In this document: in pieces, positions 6,801-30,690 of the stretch | Layout: the number at the start of each line of letters is the position of its first letter | Numbering within the stretch: the first letter of the stretch is position 1 | DNA from: Tubiluchus corallicola | Taxonomy: Eukaryota > Animalia > Priapulida | Length of the DNA: 64,000 nucleotides | Reading direction: 5' to 3' | NCBI GenBank assembly: GCA_030141605.1 | Contig: JAQGDQ010000057.1 | Location: 496,001 to 560,000 of the forward strand | Notes under the pieces: model-generated | Told to the model about the DNA's origin: nothing | Database searches by the model: none | Seen by the model: the letters and a program-made list of their open reading frames with translations, nothing else | Position numbers and translations under genes: made by a program

Positions 6801-7002
6801 AGGCTTGCCGTGATTGACAGAAAACCAGGTGCACGCCACTGTTATCGGCTGCATGGACACTATCACTTTCCCAGTTTCTCAGCAATTAAAATCGCCTGCT
6901 ATAAACATGATGAAATCACCTCTTTCCATTTCTCAGATGCTTGTATCGTGGATTTAGTAATTGGTGCATTTTTTTGCCAGATTAGGCTTCTCATGATGGT
7001 GC

Positions 7003-8683
7003 GTGGTAAGTTTGGTACTAGTAAGTTTGGTACTGGTAATTTTGGTACAAGGAAATTTTGGTACCGGGAACATTTGGTACTAGGAATTTCTAGTACGCGG
7101 AAATTTTGGTACTGGGAAAATTTGGTACAGAAAAAATGTGACACTGGTAAATATGGTACTAACGAAGTTTTGACAGGCATGCCGCATTTTTGGTACAAGT
7201 AAATATAGCATAAGGTAAAAATAGTACGGAACAAGTTTAGTATTGGGAAAGTTTGGTACTAGGAAAGTTTTAGTTCTACGATAATATATTTTATGTAGCC
7301 TATATCCTCGAACCACTTATAGGGGCTCATATTGTTGCATTTGTTTTTTATTAATTTTGTTTTTGTTTGCGTCCTCTTTATTTGTTTTTGTTATTTGCCA
7401 TTGTTGTTGTTGTTGTTGATGATGATGTTGTTGCTTGTCTGTTTCTTACTTGATCTTTTTTGTGATTACTACTACCACCAACACCACCACCATCATCATC
7501 ATTATTGATGTCATCATGTCACCATTGTTACTGTTGTCGTTTTCTTGCTGTTGTTATTGTAGATGTTGTCGTCGTTGCTGAGGTTGTTGTTATTCTTGTT
7601 GTATGTTAGTTTCTTGCTTGCTGTTTTTGTTGACCTCATCATCATCATTGTTGTCATTGTTACATTTGTCGTTTTGTTGCTATTACTGTTGTTATTGTTG
7701 TTGTTTTTGCTGTTGCTGCTGACAACAGTGATGACAGTGACAAGTACGACCATGATGATGACACGCCCATCTCTGCCACTGTCACCACTACCAAGAGCAA
7801 CATCATGACAACATTACGCCATCATCGTCAGCACTGCCGGCGTGAAAAAGAACAATTCTCACTCCATTCTGTGGCCTTCTATGCTTATGCAGGACATTTT
7901 TTTCAGTGATCGGTCATCATTGCCACGTTCTTATATTAGATTAATAATGTTTGTATAAAAACACAGAGAAAACGATTGTTTTACTCGAAAAAAACAAATT
8001 AACTGAGCTTTTCGAAAATTTGCGTGTGAGTTGAGATCTTTCATTTTTTGCTGAAAGAATTCTTAAATGTACCTACATGGGTGGTATAATCACGGATAAA
8101 ATTTTAGCTATCATGCACTATTTATTCCAGTAGAAGATTTTATGAACTCTTTAATAAACTTTACTTTCCAATTACCAGATTTCCTCTTTACTGAATAAAC
8201 TTCTTTATTTCTAGTTGAAACAATAATACTGAGATATAGAAATGCTTTCCTTTTCGGAATCAAATTTTCCAGTACCAAACTTTCATATTATATATTTTCC
8301 CCCTACCATATTTTCCTAGTACCAATATTTCTTAGTACTAAACAATCCTGATATCACAATTTCTTCGTACCAGATATTCCCACACCACTTTTTCCTAGTA
8401 CCAATATTTCTTAGTACTAAACAATCCTGATACCATAATTTCTTTGTAACAGACATTCCTACACCACTTTTTCCTAGTATCAATATTTCTTAGTACTAAA
8501 CAATCCTGATACCGTAATTTCTTCGTACCAGACATTCCCATACCACTTTTTCCTAGTACCAAAAATTCCTTGTACCTAAAGATTGTAGTACCAAATTTAC
8601 CTATACGAAAATTTTAATGCATACCAAAAATTCCTAGTACCAAATTTTCCTAGTGCCAAAATTATCTGTACCAAACTTACCAC
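7003..8683. mobile_element. Foldback-like non-autonomous DNA element with long, internally repetitive inverted arms
   Basis: The left end GTGGTAAGTTTGGTAC (7003) is the exact reverse complement of GTACCAAACTTACCAC (8668-8683). The arms (about 7003-7290 and 8260-8683) are built of ~15-bp TTTGGTACTAGGAAA-like subunits in opposite orientation. The right arm has three 79-bp higher-order units (8311-8560). No TSD identified. Confidence 0.65.
7395..7830. repeat. Degenerate trinucleotide microsatellite (GTT/GAT/CAT)
   Basis: Runs of gttgttgtt, gatgatgat and catcatcat; these explain the spurious poly-L and poly-N ORFs in the ORF track. Confidence 0.85.
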
Positions 8684-9682
8684 CAAGCTTTCCCACATTC
8701 TCTGACGATATACAATTTTAGACGATATAGGCTTACAACTTTTTTATAGTGTTGAAATCATCTTATAATTGTATTGAATTGCTATGCCAAGACATTTGAT
8801 CTTAGTTGCGCACCTTTTAAGCTATGTTACAATATTCTTACAGACTAATATGCAAGTCATCTTCATAAGCTACAGAAATACCTGTTTTATCTAGTGCTTG
8901 TCAGATTTGTATTTTGTTTGTGTGTCACTGTGTATGATTTTTTTGCAATTCCTGCTTTAATTTGGACTAAAAGTTCATTGACTGGAATGTGTTTCTTTTG
9001 TTTGTAACAAATAAAATGATTTAATACTTGATTTAAATATTCCTTGGAGTCAATTCAACTAAAAATATAGCATTTAATATTACATGTAATTTTACTAACA
9101 AAACGAAATAAACTTTAATTTGTTTGCCAGCTGGCAAAAACGTTATCAAAAATTTGTTTTATTAATAATCATAATAATTTGTCACATTATTTGCGCCTTT
9201 ACATCAATAATCTAAATAATCATAATAATTTGTTTGCAGTAATTTTACGTTGACTCCAAAAGGTCAGCAGCCGGTCGTAGCAAGCACTAACAAACAACCC
9301 TAGAGCTGAAAAACCAAAGTGTAAAAAGAGAAACTGCGAAACACTTTTGTTACGTTTTTCGTTTTTGCGATTAGCGGCTATACTGGGGGCATCAAACGGC
9401 GCATTATTAAAAAATTTTGAGCAACGCATTGACTGTAATCATAATATTCTAAGTTCACCAATAATGTTGGCATACGCGCAATTTCAATAAGCCAAAATCA
9501 CTTTTGCATTTTTAATAAAAGAAGAATATCTCAATTAAAAGCAATTTGTAGTTTGAAAAAACTGAAAACATTTAATGAAAAGGGAAAAATTGTAACTTGT
9601 AAAAATCTGCCGCTAGGGCGACACTAACTACGCGAACTGCTGCGCAATAAGTTCCTTACTTTGTTTTTGTATACTTTGTGCA

Positions 9683-9923
9683 AAACGGGGAAACCCGTTT
9701 CGGGCGTAGCCAATGGGGAGCTAATCGGCACTGCACCCTTTCACTTAAAAAATGTATGCGGTAAAACAAAAAAGCTACCCTCAAATAATCATAATATGTT
9801 TCTGTTTACTTGTACTCCAGAAACTGTTACTATTAAATGTCAGCACTCAGCAGCCGCTAGCCGGTCGTAAAAAAGGTTTGCATATATGTGGAGCCGCCCG
9901 AAAAACGGGGAAAACCGTTTTTC
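9683..9923 (+). promoter_or_regulatory. Putative promoter of the tandem-STING gene with two kappaB/Rel-like sites
   Basis: CpG-enriched island upstream of the ATG at 10095. GGGGAAACCC at 9687-9696 and GGGGAAAACC at 9907-9916, each inside a short palindrome. CCAAT at about 9710. Confidence 0.4.
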
Positions 9924-10094
9924 AAATCGCGGTGTTTGCATCGTTCTTTCAAACCTCGTTGTACGAGTGATTGCTAGAATTTTAGAAAACAGTCAGGTTT
10001 TTTGACATACGATTAGATTAGGTCGTATTGGGTTATTGGAACCGCGTTTTTTTAAAATTATAGAGTAAACTGCTGGAAATCTTGCTCTTGAGAA

Positions 10095-10179
10095 ATGGAC
10101 AGTGGTGATTTTCCTCCGGATGCTGCCCAAGGATTGGCTTGGGGATATTTCTTGGGATTTCACAACATAATTTTGCCAG
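10095..10179 (+). CDS. STING: Tandem STING exon 1 (start plus dimerisation helix of domain 1)
   Basis: [29 protein letters not shown]. The ATG has a strong Kozak context (GAAATGG) with an in-frame TGA at 10089-10091. Donor GTAAGT at 10180. Too short to appear in the ORF track. Confidence 0.88.
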
Positions 10180-13100
10180 GTAAGTGGCTCTGGAAGAGCG
10201 CCTGTTCGAAATGTAACTGAGCATTTATTGTAATTTTGTAAAGTTGCATGTCATGATGTTATTTTTTTAACTAGCACTCAGTAGAATGAGTTATTGGCGT
10301 TATGATCTGTAATTTATGTTGATACTAGTTTTTATATCATAGTATGTAGCGTATATGTCATTCTACTAGAGCATTTTGTTGTACTTTGTCAAACTTATAT
10401 TTTTGTATAAACTTCTGCTTTAGTTTTAACTTCGGCTCATGGTTGACTTGGTGACCATTAGGCATTAGTCTTTTCACCACCTTCTCCATTTCTGTGTTAA
10501 CTGTTATTTTGATTTTGTTGTTTTTTTGCAGTAAAAGAAATTAATAATAAAATATACATGTTCATTCAGTCTTAGAGCCCACAGGTCAGATGGCGAAAGG
10601 CCTGATGGAATGGCTTTAACTCCTTCGACTGAGGGTAGTTCACTTCTTTGGGATATCACTTGTATGGATACATTGGGCACCTTCAAATTTAGGTGGTTCG
10701 GCAGGTTATGCGGCTTAATTAGCTGAAAATAGAAAACGTAGTAAATACAACCAACATTGCATTTTGTGCAATTGCCATTGAAACCTCTGGCACCCTTGGT
10801 ACTGAAGGAAAGAAGTTTATTAAACACATTTGGCTAGCTTGTGCGATTAGAAAATGACAAATTGGAAAAGAAAGAATTAAAAAAGTGGATGGAAAATTGC
10901 TATGACGAAGAATCGAAAGCGGCAGTTACAGCCTGATTTTCAGTGAGTCAAATTTGAGGCCCTGCATGAGTCATGAAATGGACGGGGCTTCATGCTTTTT
11001 TTTAGGCTGGATCTGCTCTACAGTTTCTGGGCTGGGGCAAAATTTTTTGGTATGTGAGTAGGTGGGGTGTAGGGCTTGTGCTTGGCTAAATATGGGCCAT
11101 TTGTGTACAGGAAAATGTTCTGCTAGGAGACAAAAACTGAGGCCGTGGGGTCAGGGCAACAATGTCTTGTAGTGTATCAAATGAAAGGCCTCGATGAGGC
11201 GAACCGAAAGGTAAGAGTTGCACCCAAATTGGTTGACCCCTGACCCGCTAGGGAGAAAAGAATGAAATTGAAGAAACGTAGGCACCAATGCTTCAATGTC
11301 AAGCACCAGTAGCTTGTAATGTATCAAATGAAAGGTCTTGATAAAAGAAATTAAGGGGTATGAGTTACACCCAAATTGGGTGGCCCTGAACCCTTAAAAG
11401 GTGAAAACCAAAACTAGGGAGTCAGGGGGACGAATGCTTCAAATGTTAAGCAATCAGTAGGTTGTAGTGTATTATGAAAGGTCTTACGGAGACGAATTCA
11501 TTAGTGTACATTGACTCGCATATATGATTGACCCTTGATTCACGTAGAACTGATCAAAAAGTAACAAATGTTGTCATTGAAATTATTATTGTCAAGCACA
11601 ACTTTCTTACGTACATATTGTTAAAGGAAAACCGGACAAGTGATTAGACTCAGTCTCATTTTAATTTACTGTTCAAAATGTACATTTTGTTGCCTATAAA
11701 AGTTAGGAATTGTTTCTAACATTTGAATAATTACCTTGGAAAGTTAATTAACGGCAACCGAACACAGCTATCGCTTATGTCACAAACTAACCACAGTTTG
11801 TACAATGGTAGGCCGCTTCCATGTGTGTTAAGCACTTTTGCTTAAGCAAAGATTGCTATAAGATGCTGATGTGATGTCACAAAAATGAGCTCTACGCACA
11901 CAAATGCTGCAAGTCATGATCATGCTTACCACGGTACTGCGCCTAGTTGCCGACCACGCGAATGTGACAAAAAGACATCATTGCCAGTCATAGTGGATTT
12001 GCTGAGCCGCGCATAGCTTTGAAAACTTGTTTAACAAAATTTAACTATCCGTGGTAATTATTGTGGTAAAAATCTGTGGCAGTTTTCAATATTTTAGAGC
12101 ATACTTTATTTTGAACTAATGTCTACACAATTGCCCGGTTTTCCTTTAAATATTTTGGAAAAAAAATTTATGTCTAAATACGAAATGTTGCCAAACTTAT
12201 GTCACTTGAAGTATCTCATGTCACAGTTTTTGATTCACGGGTCACTAGTTATGAGTCAAAAAATATATACTAGCTATGATTTGTAACACACACACTTCTT
12301 TTAGGCTAAACTACTGTATTGTGGCCTTTTTTCATATGCTTGCAAAGTACCTAAAATTGATTTGGAAAGACCAAGGAAAATTGTATAAGGCTCTTTAGTA
12401 AAAATAATAATAATAATACTTGAAGAATTTCTCGTGCATGTAGTAAAATAAAATGTACTCTTTCAAGAAAAAATCGGTTTACTAATCAGAAGTCACTTGG
12501 AAGGAACCGGTATCGATATCTGACCAACTTCAACTCCAGCTTAAAACATTCAAGAGAATGAGCTTAAAATATAAACATGAATGCTGTACCTTAAACTACC
12601 TTTACTTTTAAAACTTTTAATATAGATTCTACCAGTACTAGTTAGTTAGTCGGGTTAAATAAAATATCTTAAAGTGAGGAATTAAGAGTCAGAAGTAGAT
12701 TTTGATGTGCTTTTATGTGGTTCCACATATTTTCATGGATGTAGCATAAATACACATAATTATAGAACAATACTGTTGTTCGTTCTAGTGTCTGTTCTGA
12801 CTTCTAAATCAGAACTGACACCTAAAAGACGCATATAGAACTTTCTTGTCACAATTATACAAACACACGCTATGTCATGTTAGTTTGTTCATTTACTGAT
12901 AAATTTCTGTGTCCTTGTTTTGTTAGTTTGGGCCCCTGGACTATGAGGCCTTGGGCTGAAACCCACTTAGCCTATGCGTTAATAAGACATGGCCCACATG
13001 TTAATAAAACACAGCCAGTAGCCTGCAGTCAAAATCATCTTTTGCTAAAAAATTAAATTCCCTTTTTTCTGTCTGGTTGCCTTTCAGAAGTCTGCTGAAA

Positions 13101-16100
13101 AGGTAAGACCTGAGCTCCCTATTCAGTAAGATTAATGGATGATAGGCCTATTTGGTTATATTACGTATCTAACATGTATCTTTCTATTAGGTTTTCAAGA
13201 TTTCGTTTCTTCATCAAAGGAATTTGGCAACAAAATAAAGTTCAAGAGGTTTTTTATGTTGATGCCAGAGGACTGTTACTGTCCAAAGAGTCTTGCTGGA
13301 GCCGACAGTCGGATAGAGCATGTGGGTAATCTGGATGATCGTCAGCTGAGTAGAGCAGGCAGTGTGAGCCGAAACTATGGCAAAAATTCAGTTTACAAGC
13401 TCACAAGACAAGGGGTATTAATTTAAACATACATAATGTTGAACTTGGAATTTTCTATTTTCTGTATACCATATAACCCCTCTGCGTGCATATAAAATTT
13501 GCTTTCTTTTTATTGTTCGTTGTACAGGGTAGTACAAGTATAGAGTCCCTCCCTCAGATTACAGAAAATCATGTCTTGAAGGCATACATGTACATTCCAC
13601 AGAGAATCATGAATGTTTCAGCATTGTAAAGAAAACTTCATAGATTTTTTGTTCAGACATTTTCCTTACAGGTGATGCTTTAGTCACCTGCATCAAAAGG
13701 CCACACTCATGGATATCTCGGCTTCAGCGGTCTAATGCATAACAATGTCCTTTACTGAGCCTGTCATTGCAGTAAATTTTTTTCAGCTACCAGTTCCACA
13801 GACTCTGTTTTTTTCTCTTAATCCATTTGTATCGCTTGTGTTAAAATAACTTGTGGATTACAAAATGTCAAAGTGTTGTACATGTTTCCATTTTTATTGT
13901 ACTTATGGCAAGTAAACAAGTTATGACAGAATCTACAAATATCAACGTTAATATAAACTACATTGTTAATCAGAATTAAAAGACTTATAAATATCATTAT
14001 GTGGCGTCAGTAGTTAGTCACTTAATGATTTTTTATACAGTGTATTGCAAAAATACTTAGTTTCAAATGTCCATGTTTCCATTTCATGTCTGTCTGGTAC
14101 AGTAATTCCAGTGCACAGTATGTGTGTTTCACATGATATGTGCTTGAGTTAGTGCTTGCTGTATGCTTGAGTATAAGCTTGTCGTTTTGCACGCTTGTGC
14201 GTTGTGGGTAGTATGGTTATGCAGAGGCTGTGTGTGCAGTGGATTACTGGGATTTGGGGTGTCACTTATTTAAAACAAATGTGTTTGTGTCACAAATATC
14301 ACTTCACTAGATTTAATTACTATAATATTCCATTTTGGAGGATTAATGTTGCCAGAGATTTTGCAGCATTTGCTGCGCCAACTCTGTAGGATAAAATATA
14401 TATTACAACATGTCAAACATATAGGTTTCAAGGCTGTTTGACATCTCTTCTATTAAAATGTTACTTATGCATTTTTTGGTTCGATTGTGAACTGCAATAG
14501 TTACAGTACATCCTGCAACAGGTTGCCACTCCACTCATATTTTTACGTCACATGTCACTGCTGAAAACTACTTTCTATTTTGCTTGAACTTTGTTCTATT
14601 ATTCTATCTTTGTTTTTCTCTATTTTTTATTATAAATTCTTTCTCTTGATAGTTTCTTAGCCTTTCCACTTTTCATAGTGGTTTTTAAGCTCTGCCGTTT
14701 AACCACTGTGCAGCATAAATTTCTGGTTGATAAGAGTAGTTTAATCAACAATAGGTTGATTTCTGGTTGATCAAGAACCGTTTCATTACATATGGTTTAT
14801 TTAATTAACAAATATAAATTTAGACTCATTTTAATTTATTTTGTTCATGTGTCTTGTAACAGTGTAATAGTGTTGTCGCTGTATATTCTATGCGTATTCT
14901 TTTGAAAAAAATTATATTTTGTAATTTTATGCTGTGCGTTCTGTAACTCAACCTTTTAGTTGTAGTGATAAATAAACTTACATATTTACCAGATAAGTTA
15001 TTATGTACTTTAGTGACTGTATTATTGCAGTTCTGTTACAATTATTGTATTTTTTTCTAATGTAGCACATAATAGTTCTGCAACAATAACAGTAATTGTA
15101 ATGTAAAATTATGTAATGCTGAATTACCGTATATACTTATGTACAAGTCGATGTGCATTTTAAGACCAAAAATTGCATTATTTTATATATTACCTGTGTA
15201 CAAGTCGACTTTAAAATATTAAGATCTTCCAGAGTAAATGATGTCAACAATGGCCGAGTAATAAATCAATAGCCTACTGTGTTAGTGTGCAAGATACATT
15301 CAAGTGCCTGGGCCGAGTATATTATACCTACCTGATGTATATATTCATGTTGAGGGCATTACTAAAATAAATTACAGTAATATTTGTTAATTTGGTGAAG
15401 TATTGTCAAGATGCGAACATTCTCTGATATGAGGTATCACAGTATGAGTGTTTGTTCAGTCCAGCATATAATGAAGGATTATTTCTTTGCATATTCGTAT
15501 TATAGACGACTCTTTAGCGACATCTCTCAAAAACATATCTTAAATATAAGTTGACCCCAAAAATTTCACCTTAAAATCGCCTCCCAAAAATTCGACTTGT
15601 ACATAAGTATGTACGCTAAATTAAGAAATAACCACACAAGAGAGTCATCCAGCATTGGCAACAGGTTTTCGAGTTGTTTTGCTGCTGTTTTGCACTTGAT
15701 TATTTGAAGTACGTGTATGTCTAAGACCCGTGTCACACAGAGAAAGCCATAATCCGTAAGCCATAAGGCGCATGTTGTAATCCGAATGTCCAAAATGTCA
15801 AAAACTGGATGCAGTTGCATTATGGTTTATAATACAGCATGTTAAAAAACAAAAGCACAAACGGACAAAACTAACTACGTAGGTTAGACCCATTTATAGC
15901 AACAGGCAAAGTGAAGAAGAATTTGCGACATTATTTCAAACAAACAAGTCACAACGAAAAAATTTTAACTACGTTAGAATATCTGTCATATCATGTTATT
16001 GGATTAACAGACTGTCAGTTGCATACACTGTATAATATGATTGACTGGTATCCTGCCTCCTGCACGTAGTGTACATTTCTTATGTGCGCTGTAGAATACG

Positions 16101-19100
16101 ACAGTCATAAATAAGTATTATGGGTTGAAAATGCTTTTTAATGTTTATAGTACATCAGCGTTATAAATTCGTAATTTTGTAAAAGAATTATACACCATAG
16201 GAACCACAAATATGCAAATTATCCCGTTAACGAAGGCGAAAAGGCCAAATTCATTTCGCAATAAGGCGCATTATGAAAAGCTCAAAATTCCTTATAAGAA
16301 ATGTACTGCAGATTATGGTTGACAGCTTACAGTAGGCAAACCACGTTTGGCGTAAGACGGCAAATGGATTATCTGTGTGACAGGGACCATCTGTTAGCAT
16401 GTATTCACTTTTCATGAGGAGTCTTTTTCTCCTTACGGATTATGTCCAGCTCTGTGTGACATAGGCCTAATGTTGTTCTTGATGCTATCATTTACAAAAG
16501 CAATTACAATAATTACAAAAAGGCACGAAATAAATTTAATAGCTACAACAGGAAACTCAAAAATAAATATTATATTAATAAATGCAATGATGCAACTACA
16601 CCTAAGCAAAAATGGCGTTTAATTAATGACGTACTTAACAGATACAGAAACGATCAATTACAAATAAATAGTTTACGAGAAAATGACAGTATAATATCTG
16701 ATCCAGTTGACATTGCTAACAAATTAAATTCCACATTTATCAATCTCGGAAAATTTGACAACTTGCCACACCAACATAATGCAAATATACACAATATATA
16801 CAAAAACCAATCAGTAATACAATCCACTTTCTCATTTACTAACGTCACAGAATACGACATCTTTAGAATATTAAACAGTTTAAATATAAATAAAGGAAGT
16901 GGACCCTCAGACATGCCAATAAAGATCTTAAAAGACTGTGCCAGCATCATTACTCCTCATCTAACATATATCACAAACCAAGTCTTAATGCGCTCAGAAT
17001 TTCCAGCAGTGTGTAAACAAGCAAACATAACTCCAATACACAAGAAAGATGCTAAAGATGATGCTAAAAACTACAGACCAATCTCAGTAGTGCACGTACT
17101 AGCCAAAGTATTTGAAAGAGTTATCTACAACCAAATAAACCATTACATTGAAAATAATAAGTTACTGTCAAATCATCAATTTGGTTTTAGAAAACTACAT
17201 TCTACAATAGAGGCGATAATTGATGCCACTGAAAAGTGGCGTTACAACTTAAATAAAAATAAATATATAACAGCAGCATTTTTAGATCTAAGTAAAGCTT
17301 TTGACAGCCTCGATCACAATTTACTACTAGACAACTTACGCCAACTAGGATTCGATTATACTTCTCTCAAACTAATTAATAATTACCTACACAATAGAAA
17401 ACAAAGAGTCAAACTGAACAAACACACTTTTTCAACATGGGACACACCACAGAGAGGCATCCCACAAGGTACGATATTAGGTCCATTACTCTTTTGTTTA
17501 TACGTTAATAAAATTCATTTAGTTTTACATAATTCAGACTTAACACAATATGCCGATGATACAACACTCTATACAGCACACTCAGACTTTCTAACATCAA
17601 AAAATAATCTAGAAAAAGACATAACAAATATAAATGCAGCATTTAACTATTTTGGTTTAAAAATGAATGATGATAAGACAGAATTTATGGTAATATCACC
17701 CAAATCTAATGACATTACTTCTAATGCAACACTAAAAGTAGGTGACTGTTCCATAGAACAAGCAAAAACTGTAAAATTTTTAGGCATTACTGTCGACAAT
17801 AAACTCACTTGGGATGAACAGTTTCATCAAATACACAACAAGATGGCATTAAGCACGACATTCTTACGCCAAACCAGAGGCCATCTAACCAAGAAAACAA
17901 AAATTCTCATCTACAAAAGTCTAATATTACCACATTATCTATATGGTTGCACTTTACTTCAAAACGTCAAACATGAAAACTTTAGAAAACTAAATACAAT
18001 GCAAAACTACGCACTTAGATTAATTCATGGCTACTCTAACAAAACTGCTAAACAACATGCTGCTTCTGCAACAAGCTTAAGAACGTCCACAAAAATACCA
18101 ATATTAGAAGCCTATCGAGATTACAAAACACTGATATTTCTTTATAAATATATAAATAAACTGAGCATTCCATTTATAAACAATCCCTTAGCATTTATTC
18201 CTGATACCACATTGAACACTAGAACATACAATTTAAAGCAAATTACAGTAAACAATAAATTTGGAAATAACTCTATATCAAAACAGGCCATACATTTATG
18301 GAACTTACTACCCAGTGAAATAAAACAAATAGAATCTCTCCACCACTTTAAAAAGAAATTAAAAGAATATCAATATAACAGGTTTCAACTTCCACCTTGT
18401 GCATCTGATACTAATTACACAGACTCCACTTTCATATACCCCCGCCCCTGACTCCATATAATGATTAAAAATGAAATTTTTTAAAAAAATTATGTAATGT
18501 AATACGTGTTATGTTAGTTTCGTGTTTCGTAATGTTAAATGTATAAATAGTGTGCACTATGTAATGTAAAATTTAATGTACTTTCCTGTAATTGTTTGTA
18601 AAAATATTTTAATATGGTATTTATAAATATGTTCATTATATTGTATATAGTTTGCACTTTAGTTTTTTTTAGTATGCACTGGACGCATTTGTCTTGAACA
18701 GTGTTGTTATTTTAACATTACGCTGAGGCTAACTCAATTTTATTATAATGAGGGAACCGTTTTTATGACAAATAAAGAATTAATATATAATATATATATA
18801 TATAGGTTGATACTTACTTTGTGGCAGAATTCTCCACCCCTTTATTGACCATGTACGAAATGTCACAAAGTGATGACATCACCATCTCAAAAGAGGACCT
18901 TCACAAGCAGATGGTGGAGTTTGTCAGGACAGTACGCTATCTTCTCTCTTCCAACACTGCGTTTGCCCATCAGTATGAAATAGTCACTGTGAAGGATTTG
19001 AGCAGTGTGTCTGATTTGGTTGCTGAACGTATCGCTTCAGGTGGAGAGGAACCAACAGTGCCGGATCCTCAAGCTGTCCCTATTCATGTTGGTGCTGGTT

Positions 19101-22100
19101 TGGCATGGTCTTACTATCTTGGATTCTTAAAAATCATATTACCAGGTGAGTTTAATAGAATTAAATTATAACAAAAAAGAATATAGTTTATTAAATTTGG
19201 CACTATTAACTTGTATTCATTTTTGTTTGAAAACTTTCAGGATTAACAATACTTGAACCTCTTTTCTAGTTATTATTTATTAGCCAAGTTAATGTCATTT
19301 TCAGATTTTGATAAGTTTGTGTCATCATCCCCAGACTTTGGTACAAAAATCCACATCAAGCGATTGATTATATTACTGCCAGAGGATTGTAACTGTCCCG
19401 GGAATTTGACAGAGGCTGATCCCAATGTACAACATGCCGGCTTTTTGGGAGACAGAAAGATTGATAGATCGGGAAATATTAACCGAAACTATGGAAGGAA
19501 TTCCGTTTACAAAATAACGGATCAGGGTGAGGTAAGTGGGTTAACCAACAATAACAAAACATGAATGAAAAATGGTCACATAATTATAACAACATTGCAA
19601 CCACTAATAACAATGTTTATCATCAACTAAAACAAACCATATCAAAAACATCAATATCAACAATATTTGTTAAAGTAATAAAACTAACATCTGCAATGTT
19701 AGTATTATAGGACTACAGGGTAGATCTAGAACTTTAAGCTCTAAGAAATGTCTCTAAAGAATATTAAAGAATCCCTTTAAAAATCAGGCCTGTGGTAAAC
19801 AGTGATTGACATCCTGTGTATGTATATCTTTACCCAAGATCACTTGTAAGTTGTACGGCAGATACGATGGCAACACAGTCTATTGGACAACTTTTGCACC
19901 TGGTGGCTCAAACTTGATTATAAGTTTTCGTTAGAATTGCCATGATATAGTATATAGTTTTTGCTCTATTGTTTTATTTCAAGTTTAAAATTCAAATTGT
20001 GAGTTAGATATTTTAAACATAATTATTTAAGCAATATTATTCTGTAGTCTTCTGACCATATAATGTTTCAGTAATCATAACTGTCTAGTCACTGTCATAT
20101 AAACATAAAAAGAAATCTCATTCATAAAGAGCAAACAAACAAGTGACATACATATGCATGAAGATATGGCATTGACTGCAATGCTGTGATTTTCTTAAGA
20201 AAACATAGCTGTCTTTCTGACAGTAAGAAGTCTTCATTAAAAATATTGAAACTGATATTTTGGACTTGATTTTCGATTTCGTTAAAAATTTTCAAAATAA
20301 CAGTGTACTATATACATCCACCAAAAAATTTAAAAATTCAATTATAAGATTCTGAATTTACTTTTGGTATTACTGTATACTGCCTGTAATGTGTATAGCA
20401 CATGTACACTGTAATTAATTTTGTAGAACATATACATTTTTTTGCAAAAATTTTAATTGTACCTTTTGGTTTCCATTTATGTATTCTTTGAAAATTTTCT
20501 TTATTTGTTGTAAAAATTAAATGATAGCATTGTAGTTGTGGTGGACACGCTTTGTCTCATGGCAACCAATATTGCTAAGCTAAACCCCAGTCCGCCACTG
20601 TTTTAGACAACGTGATTGATAATATCAAAATGCAGAAAGCCTCAAAATTTATAAGCAAAATTATAATAACAGCTTTTCAAAGCAATGTTTCTATCTCTGT
20701 AATGGAAGCATTGTGTAAAATATACATGTGCATCATTCATGCTTAGGAGTAATGCAGTCTAAGTGTTTAAAGTGCATCAATGCGTATGTCATTCGGTTTG
20801 TCTTCAATCTACCTTTGCAGACATTGTATGCAGAATGTCAAAATAAAATAAAAGGGTGCCGTCTGGAACAGGATAGATTTTAAAAAGTGCTGATAAGTTA
20901 CAACTGTCGCTGTGTGTATGGGCCAGTCTCATGAAATTTGACAAAACAAATGTGCAAAAACTTGAAAATTCACACTTTGCAAACCTATCTTCAACCTTTA
21001 TGATATTGCATTTTGATTGTCTGGGTGCCTGTTCACCAAATACAGCATAGACTGCATTATAGCGGAGATATAGGTTAGTTAATTTTTAATCAGTCCTCAT
21101 GATGTCTACACGGGGCGCATGTACAACCATTTGTTGGACATACGGTTTTGGTATGTGGACGTAAGTCCGTGCTGGTGGACATTATAAATGGGCAATTCCA
21201 TGAGTGTCATGGAGTGACATTTGATTTGAAATTAATTTAATATTGTCTGTAACGTTTGTTGTACAACATTGTGCAACAGTACCAGATAGCCTGACTAAAT
21301 CAAAAACGACAATAAGTAGAACAATTCCTTGTGTTTTGCATTTTTATGCAAGACTATTATCTAATATAGGTAAAATGCTATTGTCTTACACTAATTTGTT
21401 AAAACTGGTGTGATAAAACTGAGACGCAATCAACGGTGATGAAACATTTGTCATGAAATGATACATTTAGTTTATAAATGAAGTCACTAATTAATACTGT
21501 AAGTGGAAACCCTCGTTGGGAGCTTGTTTAATTTGGGCTATTTAAAACATTTATATATTTCTAGCTAGACTGAAAACTTTATTAGACAGTTATTTAATTA
21601 ATAAGCAACTTCTAATCTGCTTAACTAGTATGCTCATACTACAGAGGTTTCGGCCTGAGTATTAATAGGTGCCATTTTGTTTATTTTAAACTAGAAACAT
21701 GCACACTATTATTATAAACTTTTTTGAAAACAATGTTATTAGTGCATAAGTTTCTTAGTATTTATTCATGTCTGCGGTTAGTGTTTACATGTATATTTTT
21801 ACAACCAATGTTTCTCCTTAACAGGGACAGATGTCCATGAACCAGGACAACTTTTGTGTGTTCCGGTCCTGGACGTCCTGGTTATGGACATTTTTAGATA
21901 AATACTTAATTTGCTACAGTACCTTTAAAACAAGCAATTCCTATTAATTACTAAATTAGCTAGTCTTAACTACTTGTAAACATCACGTAAACTATGATGC
22001 TAATGGTACTGTTTTCTAATTATGCATGTCTCGGTAATAGACACCTAATAGATGTACTCAAAAAAATATGCTAAATGTCCTATTGCCCCGCAAAAAGAAA

Positions 22101-25100
22101 TAACTAAAGGCGGTTGCCAAAGTTCTGTCACAAAATTAGATGTGACCATGGATATTCTTATTACTACACAATCCCTAGATAGACTACGCCTATTTAAACA
22201 ACTAATAGTGGATGTGCGCAACACTCCGCCATTTTACAGTGGTATAACTCGTGCTTTATTCCTATACTGTAATAGATTATGTGCATTAGTGTACTTCAGG
22301 AATCTGAGAAATTTCATTTCTGAGAAAGGAGGAGATAGCATAAAAAATTTGGAAGCACCTGAAAATTTTGGGAGGTTTTTACTGGTAGGGGTGAACATTT
22401 TGTACCAGAAAACGAATTCGAATCGAATCAAATTTGTGACTTTCGAATTCGAATCAAACCGGATTTCGAATTCGAGTCAAATTTGAAGTTACTTTGAAAG
22501 ATTTTCGAACCTTCAGTAAAAAGCGGTGTTACAAAGATCATGCATTAGGTCCTATTACTCGATTTTGTTCTGCAATAAAACCACTAATAATGAGTGTAAA
22601 AAATGCACACAGAAAACTCTACTAAATTGTGCTAATTGCGTGATGTTAAAAACATTTTAATAACAAAAGAACCTATCTGGTTGAAGTGCTGAATTATCTG
22701 AATCTATAGTTTTAGGTTCGAATCAAATTTGCATTAAAAAACACATTCGAGTCGAATTCGAACGTTCGATCCTCATCCCTATTTACTGGTTATTGACAGT
22801 GGTAGGTATTAACCTACATAATAATACCATGTAAAATGCTCACATACTAGACTTTCACTCTTAAACTAAATTCTGTAGTAAAAAATGAACAAACTGCATA
22901 GATCTGTCAAACGTGGACGTGTAACCAAGTAAAATAATACAGACACTTTCACATAATCCTCATACCAGGAAACAAAGTTATGGCTATAATTTATTGCACT
23001 TTACTGATGAAAGGTATTGTCAGAGTCCTTAGATGAAGCACAATTTTATTTGTACACTTGACAGTACAACAGTATATGACCATTTTGCAAAATAATACCA
23101 AATACTAAATGAAAGAAGCAAGAAGAATGCATATAGTCACGTTGTAATCATGGTGAGGTAATCCCACTGTAACATGGCAGCACAAGTTTTTGTCAGCAGT
23201 AGTGCAACAGCTCATCTAGAGATTATGTAGTGATATTATTATCTATGAGTGTGACTGTCAGCACAGATTTAGATGTGATCTCAGAGAGAGACTGCTAGTC
23301 GTGTGCAAAAAAGTAACAAAACAATGGGCACCATGTTGCTGAGTAAGCTGCTACTTTCTGCTACTTCTTTATTATACATGCATGCGAAGTTTTTGCAATT
23401 GTATTTTCATTACGTATGTAGTGAATTTGCATGCAAATAGTAAAATAGTTAAAAGTGCCAGCCTCCAGTGTTATCTATAAATGTTCAAATTGGGCAAAAA
23501 AAGCATCAGCAAGGTCGTTTTGCATTTAACAGCATCCTACATTTTCATTTAAGTAAAACAATATTATAGTATTTTTGTCGATGGTCTTTTATTTGTAAAA
23601 TGCTTTCAAAATATTCAAGAAACTGCAGGGCCGGCTCTACCACTAGACAAACTAGGCAGTTGCTTAGGGTGCCAAATTTTGGGGGAGTGCCAAATTCTAG
23701 AAAAAATTAAGCTTCCATAAATAATGATGTAGAAGAAATGCATAAGTATTTAGGTGTACAACACTAATTAAATGAAACGAATTGTATTATTTTCATGCCT
23801 GCATGATTCATCCACGATAATATGGAACGGTCTACCTGCAACAAACACTTTCTACTTTCGCTTTACTAGGTTTATATAGATTTACACCAATAATACTACT
23901 GACTACATTGCACTACTTTTGCTCATACTTTCTACTGTGTGCAACTATGCTTTGAGTAGCTGAGCAGTTTCTTGCAATAACATTTATCTAAACTTATAAG
24001 GAATTGAAGCCTTCAGCCTTCAAGGATTAATGCAGTAAACTAAAGGAAAAGGCTGGTGGACATTCAAGTAGTTGAACAGTAAAAAGATCCGCTGATGAAG
24101 TGTTTGCAACCAGACCAGAATTATGGTTGTGAAGATTATAAAAATAACGAAATGAAAATGCGAGAAAAAGAGGAATTATGGATTCAGAAGCTGTAGCCTC
24201 GAATCTTATGTATAACATACCATCGAAATTAATATATAGACTAGCAAAGGCCCTGCAAAAAAATTTGCGTATAAATTCACTTATAATCAATAATATGCAA
24301 ACATCCTACATAATCCTCATTTATAACGCAAAGGCAGTAGCAGCTTTTGCTGAATTAAAGTTATAAGCAGAGTATAATGGATGACATCAGAACAATGGCT
24401 TTGCGTCAGCAGTTTTCCAAGCGAAGATCGCCCGAAATGGAACCTCCAATCAAATCGTCACAGCTCCTCGGTGTGGAGACGTCCTGAAATATAGCCCACA
24501 CCATCGTGTAGCCCTGTTCCTCCTCTTTCTAAAGAGCTATGTATCTCCATTCGAGAGTCCCACCAGGCATCACTAGAACGTTAGTCCTGCAGGCTGTTTG
24601 GTCAAACTTTCGGAAAAAAATCGGAAGTTGGGTCCGGGAAAACGTCCGTTAAGGGACGCCGTGGCCCTCTCGCGACTTCTAAGTACGCCTACTACACCCA
24701 CCGTTCAACGAGCTATCTATCCATGGCATGCACCGCTCCCTGCCCATATCCTTTCTCCAGAAATAAGAGGTATACGTTTTGCAAAAAACGGCCGAAAATG
24801 GCCATTTTGGAGGTTTTTTGCCCCCGTTCCTCCCGTTGGGCCCGATTCGAAAATAAACCATCAATGGCACGACACTAGATCGAGACCTTTTGTTTGATAT
24901 ATAGATCGTCGCAAATGGTGCCGCCGTTGGAGCTGTAGCCTCCAATCTTATATATATATAATATTTGTATTAATATATATATATATATATATATATATTA
25001 AGCCCATGCCAGCAAAATTAATATGTGCGATATATACAACAAAAATTCAATTTTAAGGATGGGGGCAGTAGAGAAGCCAGATTTACCAATAGGCTGACTA

Positions 25101-28100
25101 GGCTGCAGTTTAGAGAGCTGTGGCAGCTCGTAGCTAAAATTAGTGGGGGGTGCTGCAAAATTAAATATTTTTAGCTATTGTTTTGATACTGAGTAAAACG
25201 AAACAAACATATGTAATTTCAATGTTGTAATCGTAATTTTAAACAAACAAATTTATATATATACAAACTTGATAAACTCCTAAACAAAAAACATTGTTAC
25301 CTTACGATTAGCCTAAATTGTCGCTGTTCAAGAATATGCCGATAAATGGCTTTTAAACACGTGGCAACTGACAACGCATGCTGTGTGAGCGACATACTCT
25401 TCCTACCTAAAGTGCACTGTCTTATCTCAGACATGTGTGCATGGCCGCCAAACACCGCATTGCACTTTGCTGTGAAGGAAATTGTACTTCCCTCACGTGC
25501 TCCAGTTCCGCACAAGTATAAAGAAAGAACTAAAGAAAAAAGACATAATAGTGAATATTATCGTCAATAATGAGTGAAAACAGAGGGTGCCACGGTACCT
25601 ATACACGAGCCGCCACTGTTAGAGAGGCAAATTTTGAGGGAAGCTAGAATTGAGGGGCTCAGTATTACAAATTCTTATTCTCCTTGGGAAATGCTTATGC
25701 TTTCATATTCTTATGAAGCACATATTTTATAACACACCTCAAGGAGTTGTTAAACCACATTTCATATAAGAGCCCATATAACAATATATGTTGTAATTTA
25801 TTGGCCAACAGTAATATGAAAACACTACAAATTGCAGCATAAATATAACATTTTTTAATATAATATAATATAACAGTGAAACGCCATTGAAAATACATGT
25901 TGACAAGTTCCTAACAGCTGCTGTTGCCCAACAACATGGCACCTTTAAGCGTGACTCTTTCGAACAAGTTTTCGAACCTTCAGTAAAAAGCAGTGTTACA
26001 AAGATCATGCATTAGGTCCTATTACTCGATTTTGTTCTGCAATAAAACCACTAATAATTAGTTTAAAAAATGCACACAGAAAACTAAATTGCTAAATTGT
26101 GCTAATTGCGTGATGTTTAAAACATTTTAATGACAAAAGAACCTATCTGGTTGAAGTGCTGAATTATCTGAATCTATAGTTTTAGGTTCGAATCAAATTT
26201 GCATTAAAAAAACTCATCCAAGTCGAATTCGAACGTTCGATCCTCATCCCTATTTACTGGTTATTGACAGTGGCAGGTATTAACCTACATAATAATATCA
26301 TGTAAAATGCTCACATACTAGACTTTCACTCTTAAACTAAATTCTGTAGTAAAAAATGAACAAACTGCATAGATCTGTCAAACGTGGACGCGTAACCAAG
26401 TAAAATAATCCAGACACTTTCACATAATACTCATACCAGGAAACAAAGTTATGGCTATAATTTATTGCACTTTACTGATGAAAGGTATTGTCAGAGTCCT
26501 TAGATGAAGCACAATTTTATTTGTACACTTGACAGTACAACAGTATATGACCATTTTGCAAAATACTACCAAATACTAAATGAAAGAAGCAAGAAGAATG
26601 CATATAGTCACGTTGTAATCATGGTGAGGTAATCCCACTGTAACATGGCAGCACAAGTTTTTGTCAGCAGTAGCGCAACAGCTCATCTAGAGATTATGTA
26701 GTGATATTATTATCTATGAGTGTGACTGTCAGCACAGATTTAGATGTGATCTCAGAGAGAGTGTGCAAAAAAGTAACAAAACAATGGTGGGCACCATGTT
26801 GCTGAGCAAGCTGCTACTTTTGAATAGTGAATTTGCATGCAAATAGTAAAATACCGTATATACTCGCATATAAGCCGAATTTAGAACTATAAAATACAAT
26901 ACTGAAATCAGGGGGTCGGCTTATATGCGCATGAAACAAAATGAACACAAGGACAGACACTAATGCCAATTTTCCAGCCACACATTTTCATCGCTATCTG
27001 ACTCTTTATTTGGTTGTGTGTCACCAGTGGTGTATTGGAGGGGGATCGTGGGGAATCGCCGTCCACCCACTTTTTTTTAAGAAAAAATTCACATTTCAAT
27101 AAATGTCTGCTTTTTGTATTCATTAGATAAAAAATATTAAAAATGTATACGGGTTTGTAATGTAAAGTCAGACGATGAGGGTGGTAGTTGATGGTCGGCT
27201 TATATACGGGTTTTTGCAAAAACTGGCCATTTTAAAGCAGTTTTAGGGGGTCGGCTTATATGCGATGTAGGCTTATATGCGAGTATATACGGTAGTTAAA
27301 AGTGCCAGCCTCCAGTGTTATCCAGGTAATATTATAGCACTAGCCAACCCCATAAAAAAGTTTGTGCATAAACTCACAACAACACAACCACCACCACCCC
27401 ACTCACAACACACGACCCGCACCACACCACAACACCACACTGTAGCACACCACCTACACCACACCACACCACCACATTATCCACACCACATCACCCGCAA
27501 CACACCATTAATACCATACCACATCACCCAGATCAAACGTCACCACACCACTCCAACACCACACCCACACAACCTCCCCGCCATCCCCTACCACACCATC
27601 CACAGCACACTCACCACACCCACCACATCACATGGTGATGATGATGTTGATGACTATGATGCTGATGATAACAACAGTGATGACACCTACAACACCATCA
27701 CCAGTAGCACAAGATAACAACAAAACCATTCAAAACATTTTGCACAAAGTCAAACTGTGTGCTATAATAAATGCTATTAGTCTGTCTACCAATGATCAAC
27801 AATGCACAGACATTCTACATAGTTTTTTATTGTTCCTCAGATGATGATGGGCTAACAGAACTTAATTACATGTAAAATCCATAACACGGTCAAACGGCGG
27901 GTGAGAACAATGCCTGGAACAGCTGCAAAATTGATCAAACTTAAAGACAATGGATTTTCCAAATATCATGCAGCACAGGAGGGTTGTAAAAGAACTTTGA
28001 AACACACGTTTCCCGTTTCGTCTAGTTGACATCTCTCCTAGTAAAAACCTTCAGCATTTTGTAGACCATTCCGTCTTCTTTCTGCGGGTGCACTGATTTT

Positions 28101-29742
28101 ATTTCCCAGCATGCCCAAACAGTTGCACAAATTGAGTTCTTCTAGAGGCTGTTTGAGCAGTTTTCTGCAAAATTTGCGTGGTTGTGTCCGGGAAAACATC
28201 CGTCGCGGACGCCATGGCCCCCTCGCAAATTCTAAATATGCCTACTACACCCACTGCTGAATGGGCTATCTACCCATAGTAAGCACCCGGTGGGCCCGAT
28301 TCGAAAAATAAAGTCCCAATGAGACCACACTAGATCGAGACCTTTCGTTTGATATATATAGATCGCCGCAAATGGTGCCGCCGTCGAACTTTCGAAATAT
28401 TGTTCTATACGTAAGCAAGCAGTCCCTCTATACACTTTAACTAAATCTGTGGACTGTCAGCCATATCCTGGTGCATTCTGGGGTTGATTTTCAGATGCCT
28501 CTAGTAGCAACAAAAGTTTTAATTAAATTCCCAGTTGTGGACAATTTTTTTAGACATTAGTACATTTGTTGGTGGTTTTATTAAGAGCTGCCGACTTGGA
28601 AAAGCTTATGAATGTCAGCTATGCCCTAAATATGGGCTAATTACCACAAACACAAAAAATCTCGAAAGTTTAATACTTTTTGTGTTAGAAGATCATTTTG
28701 ACAAGTTGGTGAAGCAATAGACCGTCCCGGACATGAAAATCTCAAGCAATTTCTGCTTTCAAGTCCAACTAATGTGAACATACTGCACTTGTAATTTCTC
28801 AAATATGTTTGTTCTGGCAACAGACAACACAAACCAAAAATGGTGTAAGTTGATGGTGAAAACTAGATAAAATTACCAAAGGCACCATTTTGTAACATTT
28901 TGCAAGAATGGCCCATATAACAATTGCTAAAGTCTGCCTAACAGATTTAGTAGAGCAAGTTTCTGTTTGTCAATTTACAACCTATAATAATCTGAGAAAC
29001 AGTGGCAAAATACTGCTGAAGTTGAACACGTTATGTGGAACAGTCATTAAATTTATGCAAGAAACTTTTCCCTTAGGTGTCAACATTACTCAAAATCAAA
29101 TGATTAAATAAAATTCTCACTAGAAACTGAACTTGGACATAATGGGCAATGTCCATTATTCACCTGATTAACAATTTGTGAATGTAATCTATTCACATTG
29201 TACTTAGAGTAAAATATTTTAGCATAATAATCCAAATAGTTGCCTAAATATTAGCAGTTTTGCCAAGCAGTTAATTATAATACTTTAAAGTTACTTTACT
29301 AATATGTAATATGTAAATTTTATTACATTCCCAATGATTTTAATTTTATCTAACTCATCATTTTATATGTAGCCATTGCTGCTCATGTTTTTGATTTTAC
29401 AAGTTTGAAATGCTAGTTTTTGGCCTTTACCTGTAAATGTTTAATATGTAATAGTGTTGCTTCAGTTTCTAAAAAATTAGAACATTTTTTGCTAATTTTT
29501 AGGACAAGTATTTTGTGGCTGAGTGCCCTGCAGTACTGCTGACTATGTATGAGATGTTGCATCACAATAAGAATGTAACCTTCACCCAAGAAAATCTTGC
29601 ACAGGAACTGGAGCAGTTTCTCGCAACTTTGAAATGGCTTCTTGGTAAGAATGGAGACTGCAAGAACCAGTATGAGGTCATTCCTGTGAAGAAAATAAAT
29701 ACAATTTCTGGATTAATTGCAGTTGCTTTTTCTGGGGGTTAA
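10095..29742 (+). CDS. STING: Tandem STING protein: two cyclic-dinucleotide-binding (TMEM173/STING C-terminal) domains, no TM segment, no C-terminal tail; 5 exons, 371 aa
   Basis: Exons 10095-10179, 13191-13414, 18806-19145, 19305-19531 and 29503-29742 join in phase (85+224+340+227+240=1116 nt) with no internal stop. Repeat 1: [18 protein letters not shown]...[10 protein letters not shown]...[16 protein letters not shown]...[14 protein letters not shown]. Repeat 2: [18 protein letters not shown]...[10 protein letters not shown]...[16 protein letters not shown]...[14 protein letters not shown]. Both match STING AHGLAWSYYIGYLRLILP / ILLPLDC / DRAGIKDRVYSNSIY / LEYATPLQTL. The symbol denotes the family, not proven orthology. 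Confidence 0.9.
10570..10830 (+). mobile_element. CRE-like non-LTR retrotransposon fragment (restriction-like endonuclease remnant) in STING intron 1
   Basis: Plus strand reads [14 protein letters not shown]...[11 protein letters not shown] and [20 protein letters not shown], matching the RPDG...WDxTCxDT...AIETxG pattern of CRE-clade RLE domains. Confidence 0.65.
10920..11560. repeat. Interspersed repeat with recurring TATCAAATGAAAGG / TTGACCCCTGACCC blocks, copy A (possibly Helitron/HINE-like)
   Basis: Internally repeated ~120-bp blocks, with clear similarity to 29960-30690. The family assignment is tentative. Confidence 0.55.
11625..12145. mobile_element. Kolobok-like MITE with TTAA target site duplication
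   Basis: TTAA|AGGAAAACCGGACAA ... TTGCCCGGTTTTCCT|TTAA: 15-bp TIR with one mismatch (extendable imperfectly to ~25 bp), purine-purine terminus, TTAA on both sides. Confidence 0.75.
13191..13414 (+). CDS. STING: Tandem STING exon 2 (domain 1 core and lid)
   Basis: Acceptor ctaacatgtatctttctattag; reads [11 protein letters not shown]...PEDCYCP...[22 protein letters not shown]; donor GTATTA at 13415. Confidence 0.88.
15127..15616. mobile_element. Tc1/mariner-pogo-type MITE, TA TSD
   Basis: TA|CCGTATATACTTATGTACAAGTCG ... CGACTTGTACATAAGTATGTACGC|TA, an imperfect 24-bp TIR. Confidence 0.75.
16493..18803 (+). mobile_element. 5'-truncated CR1/L2-group (Crack/Daphne-like) LINE with an intact RT frame, 3' UTR and (TA)n tail, in STING intron 2
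   Basis: The frame is stop-free from about 16493 to 18451 (ORF track 16763-18451). It contains [46 protein letters not shown] and [13 protein letters not shown]. There is no APE domain, so it is 5'-truncated. AT-rich 3' UTR, AATAAA at 18771-18776, then (TA)n to 18803. Confidence 0.9.
18806..19145 (+). CDS. STING: Tandem STING exon 3 (end of domain 1, linker, start of domain 2)
   Basis: One uninterrupted frame, [19 protein letters not shown]...[42 protein letters not shown], physically links the two domains. Donor GTGAGT at 19146. Confidence 0.92.
19305..19531 (+). CDS. STING: Tandem STING exon 4 (domain 2 core and lid)
   Basis: Acceptor ttaatgtcattttcag; reads [11 protein letters not shown]...LPEDCNCP...[23 protein letters not shown]; donor GTAAGT at 19532. 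Paralogous to exon 2. Confidence 0.92.
22386..22781. mobile_element. hAT-type MITE with 8-bp TSD
   Basis: TTTACTGG|TAGGGGTGA ... TCATCCCTA|TTTACTGG, with subterminal TTCGAAT(C) repeats. Confidence 0.85.
22502..23475 (+). repeat. Local ~1-kb duplication, copy 1 (STING intron 4)
   Basis: Near-identical to 25969-26853 plus 27293-27322. Confidence 0.9.
24160..24960. repeat. Interspersed repeat (possibly Helitron/HINE-like) with a partial second copy at 28140-28400
   Basis: Shares the blocks GGGCCCGATTCGAAAA and CACTAGATCGAGACCTTT..TTTGATATA..CGCAAATGGTGCCGCCG with 28140-28400. AGCTGTAGCCTCNAATCTTAT occurs near both ends, followed by (TA)n. Confidence 0.55.
25118..25618. mobile_element. hAT-type MITE with 8-bp TSD, nested in another element fragment
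   Basis: TTAGAGAG|CTGTGGCAGCTCGT ... ACGAGCCGCCACTG|TTAGAGAG; 14-bp TIR with 2 mismatches. Confidence 0.8.
25969..27322 (+). repeat. Local ~1-kb duplication, copy 2, interrupted by a MITE
   Basis: Matches 22502-23475 except for the 26854-27292 insertion and small indels. Confidence 0.9.
26854..27292. mobile_element. Tc1/mariner-pogo-type MITE, TA TSD
   Basis: TA|CCGTATATACTCGCATATAAGCC ... GGCTTATATGCGAGTATATACGG|TA, a perfect 23-bp TIR. The empty site (aaaata|gttaaaag) is visible in copy 1 at about 23445. Confidence 0.9.
27375..27720. repeat. Low-complexity CAC/CCA- and GAT-rich tract
   Basis: Degenerate (CACAC)n then (GAT)n; explains the His/Thr/Pro-rich ORF. Confidence 0.8.
29503..29742 (+). 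CDS. STING: Tandem STING exon 5 (end of domain 2, stop)
   Basis: Acceptor gctaatttttag; reads [18 protein letters not shown]...[10 protein letters not shown]...[24 protein letters not shown]. Paralogous to the first part of exon 3. Confidence 0.88.
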   Translation, partial: DKYFVAECPAVLLTMYEMLHHNKNVTFTQENLAQELEQFLATLKWLLGKNGDCKNQYEVIPVKKINTISGLIAVAFSGG

Positions 29743-29959
29743 ATAAGTGTTACATACCTACAGCTTGTGACACTGCGGGGCGGCACTTGAGTTTGCCCTT
29801 AGATATGCCTCCTTACGTACTTTACATCACAGTGAGAACATATCACTATCGACTTTGTACATGCGTAATTGGTGTAGGCCCGCTGATGTATAGTTTGTGC
29901 ACTATACCCCAAACAATTTTGTCGTTTTGGAAATCATTCAATTTTGCAGATAGCATTGG

Positions 29960-30690
29960 CCTGAGATTGGTTGATCTGGGTCAAAGGTCATGGAGCAGGC
30001 AGGGTTTGTTGTTTTTTCGTTATGCTGGTTCTCCTACGTTTTTGAGCCATGGCCACAATTTTTGGTATGTTGCTAGGGGGTGCCGAGCTGATGTGCATGG
30101 CTGAATATCAGGAGGCATAAATCAAAATCGAGGGGGGTTAGGAATATCAGTGCTCCCAGTGTCGAGCAACAGTAATGTGTAATATATCAAATGAAAGGCC
30201 TGATCGAGGTGAATCGAATGGTATAAGTTTTGCTGATTTTGATTGACCCCTGACCCCGCTAGGGCACAAAAACCAAAATCAGGGGTTGGGACACAAGTGG
30301 TTCCACTGTCAAGTAACAGTACTTTGTACTACATCAAATGAAAGGTCTTGATGAGAAGAATGGAATGGTGTGAACTATGCCCAAATTGGTTGACTCTTGA
30401 CCCGCTAGGGGGCAAAAACCAAAATTGAGGATCATGAAGACAAATGCTTTTCATTGTCCAGCAGCAACAGGTTGTAGTATATCAAATGAAAGGTATCAGC
30501 AAGGCTAAATAAATAAGTCATTTGTTGACCTTTGACCCTGTAGTCACAGGTAAAGTGGAAGTTCCAGTTTTAATATCTTATAATACATCAAATGTAAGGT
30601 CTTTATGTGACAAATTGACTGGTGTATCTTGACCCGTGTGTGGTTTAACCTTGACCCACAGGTGACTGGTCAAAAAGTAGCAAGCTCTGG
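29960..30690. repeat. Interspersed repeat with TATCAAATGAAAGG blocks, copy B
   Basis: Same recurring blocks as 10920-11560, e.g. cccaaattggttgac.c.tgacccgctaggg. Confidence 0.6.

Follow-up and report, generated by a model that had tools for sequence, protein, structure and literature searches.

The 64,000-nucleotide stretch of the Tubiluchus corallicola genome analysed here (contig JAQGDQ010000057.1, positions 496,001 to 560,000, called the window below) contains a gene of five exons that encodes two STING ligand-binding domains in one chain and nothing else. This gene is a transcript-supported STING variant with a conserved asymmetry in its ligand pocket, and its layout is less unique than was first supposed. 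The STING structures described in the papers cited here are homodimers, in which two identical halves read a cyclic dinucleotide; a natural fused pseudo-heterodimer with complementary pocket changes would reveal which contacts matter on which side. It would also make testable the idea of dedicated host-encoded buffers of cGAS-like receptor (cGLR) signals in invertebrates, or of membrane-free STING signalling, and, if true, would provide a ready-made single-chain scaffold for cyclic dinucleotide sensors.

The exons are joined at GT-AG boundaries in phases 1, 0, 1 and 0, and their 1116 nucleotides give 371 amino acids and a stop codon, with GLAW motifs at residues 13 and 201 (a spacing of 188). 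The Pfam profile STING_LBD (PF15009) matched each of the five exons, with two stretches in exon 3; the E-value was 5.5e-3 for exon 1 (28 amino acids) and 3.5e-8 to 5.1e-18 for the others, and four of the five single exons, covering both domains, scored more than 27 bits, above the curated PF15009 cut-off. Domains 1 and 2 were identical at 85 of 189 aligned columns (45%). When exon 3 was used as the query, three relatives (P0001, P0002 and P0003) were found among 384 candidates, and the exon 3 region was unbroken in all of them. Two neighbouring genes or an annotation artefact can be excluded, because exon 3 is one open frame and the linker between the domains is spanned by these three database proteins. 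A preliminary description of this DNA had proposed a two-domain single polypeptide, and the exon structure, the profile matches in every exon and the linker read through in P0001 all agreed with it.

The highest mean Kyte-Doolittle hydropathy over 19 residues was 1.33 in the 371-amino-acid protein, and it therefore contains no transmembrane (TM) segment. The four-TM region of canonical STING was absent from the gene model, and STING_TM gave no match in P0001 or P0002; with Pfam, these two proteins, the exons and the flanking frames all lacked a TIR domain. The stop codon lies four residues past domain 2, without a C-terminal tail of the vertebrate type that recruits TBK1/IRF3. P0002 and P0003 likewise end directly after the domain, as the preliminary description had stated for the window protein. 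It had also expected two STING matches without a TM match in a profile check, and P0001 (201 bits) and P0002 (232 bits) each gave two such stretches.

Transcripts, relatives and age of the fusion

P0001 (303 amino acids, from a 1482-nucleotide contig) has the same start Met as the window gene, crosses junctions 1 to 3 and the linker, and then enters intron 4. None of the runs listed as carrying the gene is recorded as RNA, and we guess run X2 to be RNA; its contigs, about 90–94% identical to the exons, are joined GT..AG at introns 1 and 4 and match the two sides of intron 2 as consecutive pieces. They do not cover 18966–19322, so the two domains are not bridged by X2 itself. P0001 and X2 together give transcript-type support for all four junctions, in line with the spliced transcript that the preliminary description required. 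Intron 4 stays open for about 10 codons (19532–19564), and P0001 ends in this way with a truncated second domain, as a retained intron or an alternative end. A 468-nucleotide contig of X2 is a 438-nucleotide in-frame cycle of exon 4 and exon 5 (19323–19529 and 29501–29721) with 10 foreign letters; the junction of this circular contig lies off the splice sites, and the options are a library chimera, a circular RNA or a repeated unit.

P0002 (373 amino acids, from a 1280-nucleotide contig) is a full two-domain protein about 60% identical to the window protein, with 108 of 180 positions shared in domain 1 and 103 of 169 in domain 2. Its first Met stands 16 residues before the first helix, and it has neither a TM segment nor a tail; P0003 is a partial sequence. 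The proportion of synonymous differences between the domains (pS) was 0.80, which is saturated, against 0.33 for nonsynonymous differences (pN), and 9 of the 13 changed codons in exon 2 were silent, a count drawn from 14 of 18 differences. The pS/pN values and the silent-codon excess indicate that the gene is under purifying selection, which is the constraint that the preliminary description had looked for, and not a ratio of nonsynonymous to synonymous rates (dN/dS) near 1. A pseudogene is excluded by the open frames, the splicing and the excess of silent changes.

A tree was built from 60 domains selected out of 170, and a FastTree run on 166 agreed with it; the seven domains of this gene formed one clade on a long stem with support of 100/100. 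The clade splits into domain 1 (99/98) and domain 2 (100/98), and it follows that the duplication is older than the separation from P0002. A recent duplication or an assembly error is excluded, because synonymous differences between the domains have reached saturation and the species diverged later than the domains did. As judged from these sequences, the fusion is old, lineage-specific and maintained.

Ligand pocket and predicted fold

Pocket residues are named by their presumed human STING positions, mapped through a vertebrate homologue. The equivalents of R232, R238 and Y240 were kept in seven of seven domains of the gene, and position 167 was aromatic (Phe or Tyr) in all seven; both halves thus retain the lid arginine (R238) and the aromatics that stack on the bases (167 and Y240). 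All three domain 1 copies had G162/T263/P264 and all three complete domain 2 copies had S162/A263/V264; among 117 single domains, S-T-P occurred in 58, G-T-P in 7 and S-A-V in none. The aligned residues make the two halves reciprocal, with the T263 equivalent only in domain 1 and the S162 equivalent only in domain 2. In section 9 of their paper, Li et al. (PMC9980059) described that S162 and the threonine at position 263 contact the guanosine of 2'3'-cGAMP (a cyclic GMP-AMP) and that ligand specificity is set by these positions. A single copy each of Ser and Thr might be what a fixed-orientation pocket for an asymmetric ligand would keep.

The AlphaFold2 model of P0002, built from a 46-row alignment, had a predicted local distance difference score (pLDDT) of 91.7, with 79–88 in the linker blocks, and a predicted template modelling score (pTM) of 0.89. 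Its halves matched coral and human STING structures with Z scores of 22–25 and root-mean-square deviations (rmsd) of 1.5–1.9. A pTM of 0.89 for two equal domains implies a confidently predicted fixed relative orientation, and from this value the arrangement is probably a pseudo-dimer like the V-shaped STING dimer. The intramolecular pseudo-dimer of the preliminary description is thus matched in part: the fixed arrangement of the two domains is predicted, for P0002, and the V shape is probable. A single-sequence prediction of a Capitella protein, run with no alignment, reached a pLDDT of 32.5.

Possible function and alternative explanations

We tentatively propose, at somewhat under an even chance for the whole chain of steps, that the protein works as a soluble pseudo-dimer within a single chain: it would bind one cyclic dinucleotide and would buffer or dampen cGLR signalling. 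The first step, a spliced two-domain chain conserved in relatives, was observed. The Met at 10095 is probably the true start, and hence the protein would carry no anchor or effector. On the model, the chain would probably fold back into an intramolecular V-shaped pseudo-dimer. A cyclic dinucleotide would quite probably be bound between the two unequal halves, and the likeliest ligand would be of mixed linkage, such as 2'3'-cGAMP, because the fusion would have let each half lose one of the two contacts that a homodimer carries twice. By analogy, a chain with no output module would lower or smooth the levels of free messenger and would serve in the cytosol as a buffer or decoy for signals from cGLRs. 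Human STING-beta and STING-deltaN, which lack all or most TM segments, were reported to bind 2'3'-cGAMP and to inhibit signalling (PMC5934658, PMC12181837), which gives the sponge or decoy of the preliminary description a direct precedent, and on this analogy a decoy or buffer like STING-beta is the most likely function. Those are single-domain isoforms that keep the TBK1-binding tail, whereas the window holds a dedicated gene for two fused, diverged domains with no tail.

Several points weigh against this proposal. About three related sequences underlie the pocket asymmetry, which may have arisen by drift, and at the Y167 equivalent the window protein has Phe in either half, as do 6 of the 117 single domains. 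The modelled protein was P0002, with a linker of 17 residues, whereas the window protein has 14, and AlphaFold2 was trained on many STING homodimers, so that a linked pair tends to be built as a dimer anyway. The human decoy isoforms also work through their TBK1-binding tail, which is absent here. At the 5' end, the match of the X2 contig that covers exons 1 to 3 begins at 10093, right after an AG at 10091–10092, and is preceded by 207 unmapped nucleotides. Moreover, a HMMER search gave 345 matches, and among the best 150 no conventional TM-STING of the same lineage was found; this weighs against a decoy, whose action presupposes a competing receptor.

The same observation agrees, weakly, with a second explanation that we consider unlikely, in which the fold and the ligand are as proposed but the protein is a soluble receptor, and perhaps the main STING of its lineage: closure on the ligand would uncover a surface to which a separate effector is recruited in trans. 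Tail-less invertebrate STING is reported to work in immunity (PMC6723221). Both lids are conserved over the long term, and STING domains that stand alone, one to a protein, exist in other animals, such as annotated proteins of 195 and 184 amino acids in Lingula and Priapulus and L001, whose 5' frame is closed by an in-frame stop before its ATG at 200. However, the chain has no output module, and no anchorless, effector-less STING is known to signal. L001 occupies 200–796 of a JGI contig behind a leader of 199 nucleotides and is a soluble one-domain STING of another organism.

A longer protein is a further explanation, which appears quite unlikely. An upstream coding exon (TM, TIR or other) would join in phase 1 at the AG at 10091–10092 and give a chain with an added module ahead of both STING domains, like the octocoral protein P0005, whose hydrophobic N-terminal part precedes two adjacent STING domains. 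The exact start of the X2 match speaks for it, as do the 207 nucleotides before that point, which found no placement in 4830–13450 at 80% identity, and the fact that among the 10 AG sites in 9900–10094 only the one ending at 10092 keeps the frame open. The in-frame TGA that the preliminary description had noted was confirmed and overlaps this GAG. On the other hand, the GAG makes a poor acceptor, and a better one, TAG, lies 29 nucleotides further upstream. The 207 nucleotides could represent a leader exon that is non-coding, a leader that has diverged, a chimera of the library or a coding exon in phase 1, and the odd circular contig in X2 makes chimeras plausible. No domain-like exon was seen in 1–10092: among 129 flanking plus-strand open frames of at least 32 amino acids (1–10092 and 29743–37300, with the FAHD1 exon excluded), all stayed below the Pfam cut-off, and matches to TM, TIR or death domains were absent, as the earlier claim of no visible TM or TIR exon upstream had it. 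The donors checked gave no convincing coding exon. In both P0001 and P0002 the chain starts with a Met close to the first helix, the two N-termini show no conservation with each other, and an extended form was not found among the proteins of 199–2000 amino acids searched, which counts weakly. Thus, for the start at 10095, the TGA and the lack of a domain-like upstream exon held, while the X2 joint after the weak GAG fits the scenario that the preliminary description itself had named as contrary. A strong donor is also present at 724–730, 31 nucleotides before the FAHD1 start in CpG-rich DNA; if it were joined to 10093, FAHD1 and this gene would share a non-coding leader.

It is improbable that the protein forms ligand-induced assemblies, either by pairing of its domains between chains (domain-swapped dimers, daisy chains) or by bridging the dimers of conventional STING. 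STING dimers of bacteria and vertebrates stack laterally into filaments (PMC9402430), and the linker here is short and flexible, but the single-chain pTM implies that it permits a self-contained arrangement. The A277 equivalent was Ile, Val or Leu in six of six complete domains of the gene, against Ala in 69 of the 117 single domains, with a loop alignment uncertain by one residue at this position. A277 belongs to the oligomerisation-deficient pair Q273A/A277Q (10.1101/2023.08.11.553045), and the bulky residue argues weakly against side-by-side polymers and thereby against the filaments suggested in the preliminary description. Finally, a loss of nucleotide binding in one or both pockets, with the protein retained as a scaffold or undergoing decay, is highly unlikely: each half lost one conserved pocket residue, both have Phe for Y167, and P0001 lacks exon 5 by intron-4 read-through, but the ligand-facing lid residues are invariant in seven of seven domains, silent changes are in excess, and exon 4–5 splicing is present in X2.

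Known STING architectures and genomic surroundings

Each half of the protein shares the ligand-binding fold, the lid and the stacking residues with canonical metazoan TM-STING (human 4KSY; coral Sp-STING1 8EFM and Sp-STING3 8EFN); a half of P0002 matched Sp-STING3 with Z 24.7 and rmsd 1.7, and Sp-STING1 with Z 23.1 and rmsd 1.5. Unlike canonical TM-STING, the window protein has no TM region or tail, and it carries two non-identical domains per chain instead of forming a homodimer. A TM region is also lacking in TIR-STING and TIR-STING-TIR-STING proteins (oyster 6WT7; Lingula XP_013404162; Ylistrum XP_060080375), and some of these lophotrochozoan chains have two or four STING domains with unequal pocket residues, as here. 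Their STING domains, however, stand about 170–230 residues apart, with TIR between them where matched, whereas those of the window protein are adjacent and without an effector, and in the tree the duplication in the window gene is separate from theirs. Reviews on bivalve immunity describe TM-less, duplicated STING domains in fusion with other modules. A protein class with two STING and two TIR domains has been reported in oyster (PMC11103948).

At least two STING domains were present in 26 of 153 sequences examined, 23 of the 26 lying outside this lineage. In most multi-STING proteins the domains are far apart, TIR was found in 4 of 13 scanned, and the named widely spaced ones come from bivalves and a brachiopod. 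Widely spaced two-STING proteins (P0006, P0017, P0032, P0036, P0056, P0084, P0107, P0112 and others) have a recurring asymmetry of their own, with S162/H163/G166 in the first domains and N166 in the second; its named carriers are bivalves. From 173 pattern matches, a metagenome scan arrived at one locus, which encodes an unrelated STING with one domain.

Of the other multi-STING proteins, 23 in number, three have the layout of the window protein, with a short N-terminus, two adjacent STING domains and a short C-terminus: Capitella teleta ELT98160, Ornithodoros turicata XP_064457176/7 and the JGI protein P0126, all uncharacterised predictions. Their duplications are apparently independent (tick pair 99/72, Capitella pair 94/95 with long branches, P0126 not resolved by the tree). 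The first domains of the Capitella protein and P0126 have lost several pocket residues, unlike the window protein. Wu et al. noted TM-less STING predictions in arthropods (PMC4117786), and the word "tandem" does not occur in the main text of PMC10732462. No description of a STING-only tandem protein was found in the literature searched, from which subscription journals and most supplements were outside scope. The architecture, which the preliminary description did not know from any characterised protein, was thus absent from that literature, but these database predictions have the same layout.

The recurrence of STING-STING-only proteins in unrelated animals suggests a repeated, unstudied solution. 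It is a rather doubtful, though far-reaching, prospect that the halves are specialised on two different nucleotides of an asymmetric messenger, that the protein is a membrane-free receptor in a lineage perhaps without conventional STING, and that the same fusion arose several times independently (in this lineage, an annelid and a tick), forming an unrecognised class of soluble STING.

The features of the gene are listed below. The linker is 14 residues long in the window protein and 17 in P0002 and P0003, and its sequence is poorly conserved.

Features of the tandem STING gene, in window coordinates, with residues at human STING positions
Feature	Position	Strand	Landmarks	Support
In-frame TGA (10089–10091) overlapping weak GAG acceptor (10090–10092)	10089..10092	+		X2 match begins at 10093
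Coding exon 1: start Met, first helix of domain 1	10095..10179	+	GLAW at 10131; Gly17 (S162 equivalent); Phe22 (Y167 equivalent)	Pfam E 5.5e-3; matched by P0001 and X2 contig
Exon 2: beta core and lid of domain 1	13191..13414	+	R83, R89, Y91 (R232, R238, Y240 equivalents)	Pfam E 9.8e-12; X2 joint 10179>13191
Exon 3: domain 1 end, linker, first helix of domain 2	18806..19145	+	E111, T114, P115 (domain 1); GLAW at 19097; Ser205; Phe210	Two Pfam stretches, one open exon
Inter-domain linker	19043..19084	+	Residues 183–196	Domain limits by structural alignment
Exon 4: beta core and lid of domain 2	19305..19531	+	R271, R277, Y279	Pfam E 1.4e-12; junction 3 in P0001; 19531>29503 in X2
Exon 5: domain 2 end and stop codon, no tail	29503..29742	+	E299, A302, V303 (at E260, T263, P264 equivalents)	Pfam E 3.5e-8; X2 contig

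The gene is placed between FAHD1 upstream and MED14 downstream, the latter on the other strand (about 37300–63220, many exons, Pfam matches in 3 of the 13 frames that were tested). A FAHD1 exon reached at most 62% identity to database sequences, with several phyla about equally close. Searches of the window for tRNA genes and Rfam families gave no match. The region 9001–10000 has a CpG observed/expected ratio of 1.25–1.39, compared with 0.52; a promoter island there was given little weight because of degenerate repeated motifs, which lie in the CpG-rich segment 9164–9920 at spacings of about 220, 350 and 570 nucleotides. An 863-nucleotide block occurs twice in intron 4 (22502–23357 and 25969–26820) with 96% identity. 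Intron 2 carries, on the sense strand, a reverse transcriptase frame of the long interspersed nuclear element (LINE) type, 663 codons long (16460–18448; Pfam RVT_1 E 1.5e-36), which ends just before exon 3, whose acceptor lies at the end of an AT microsatellite.

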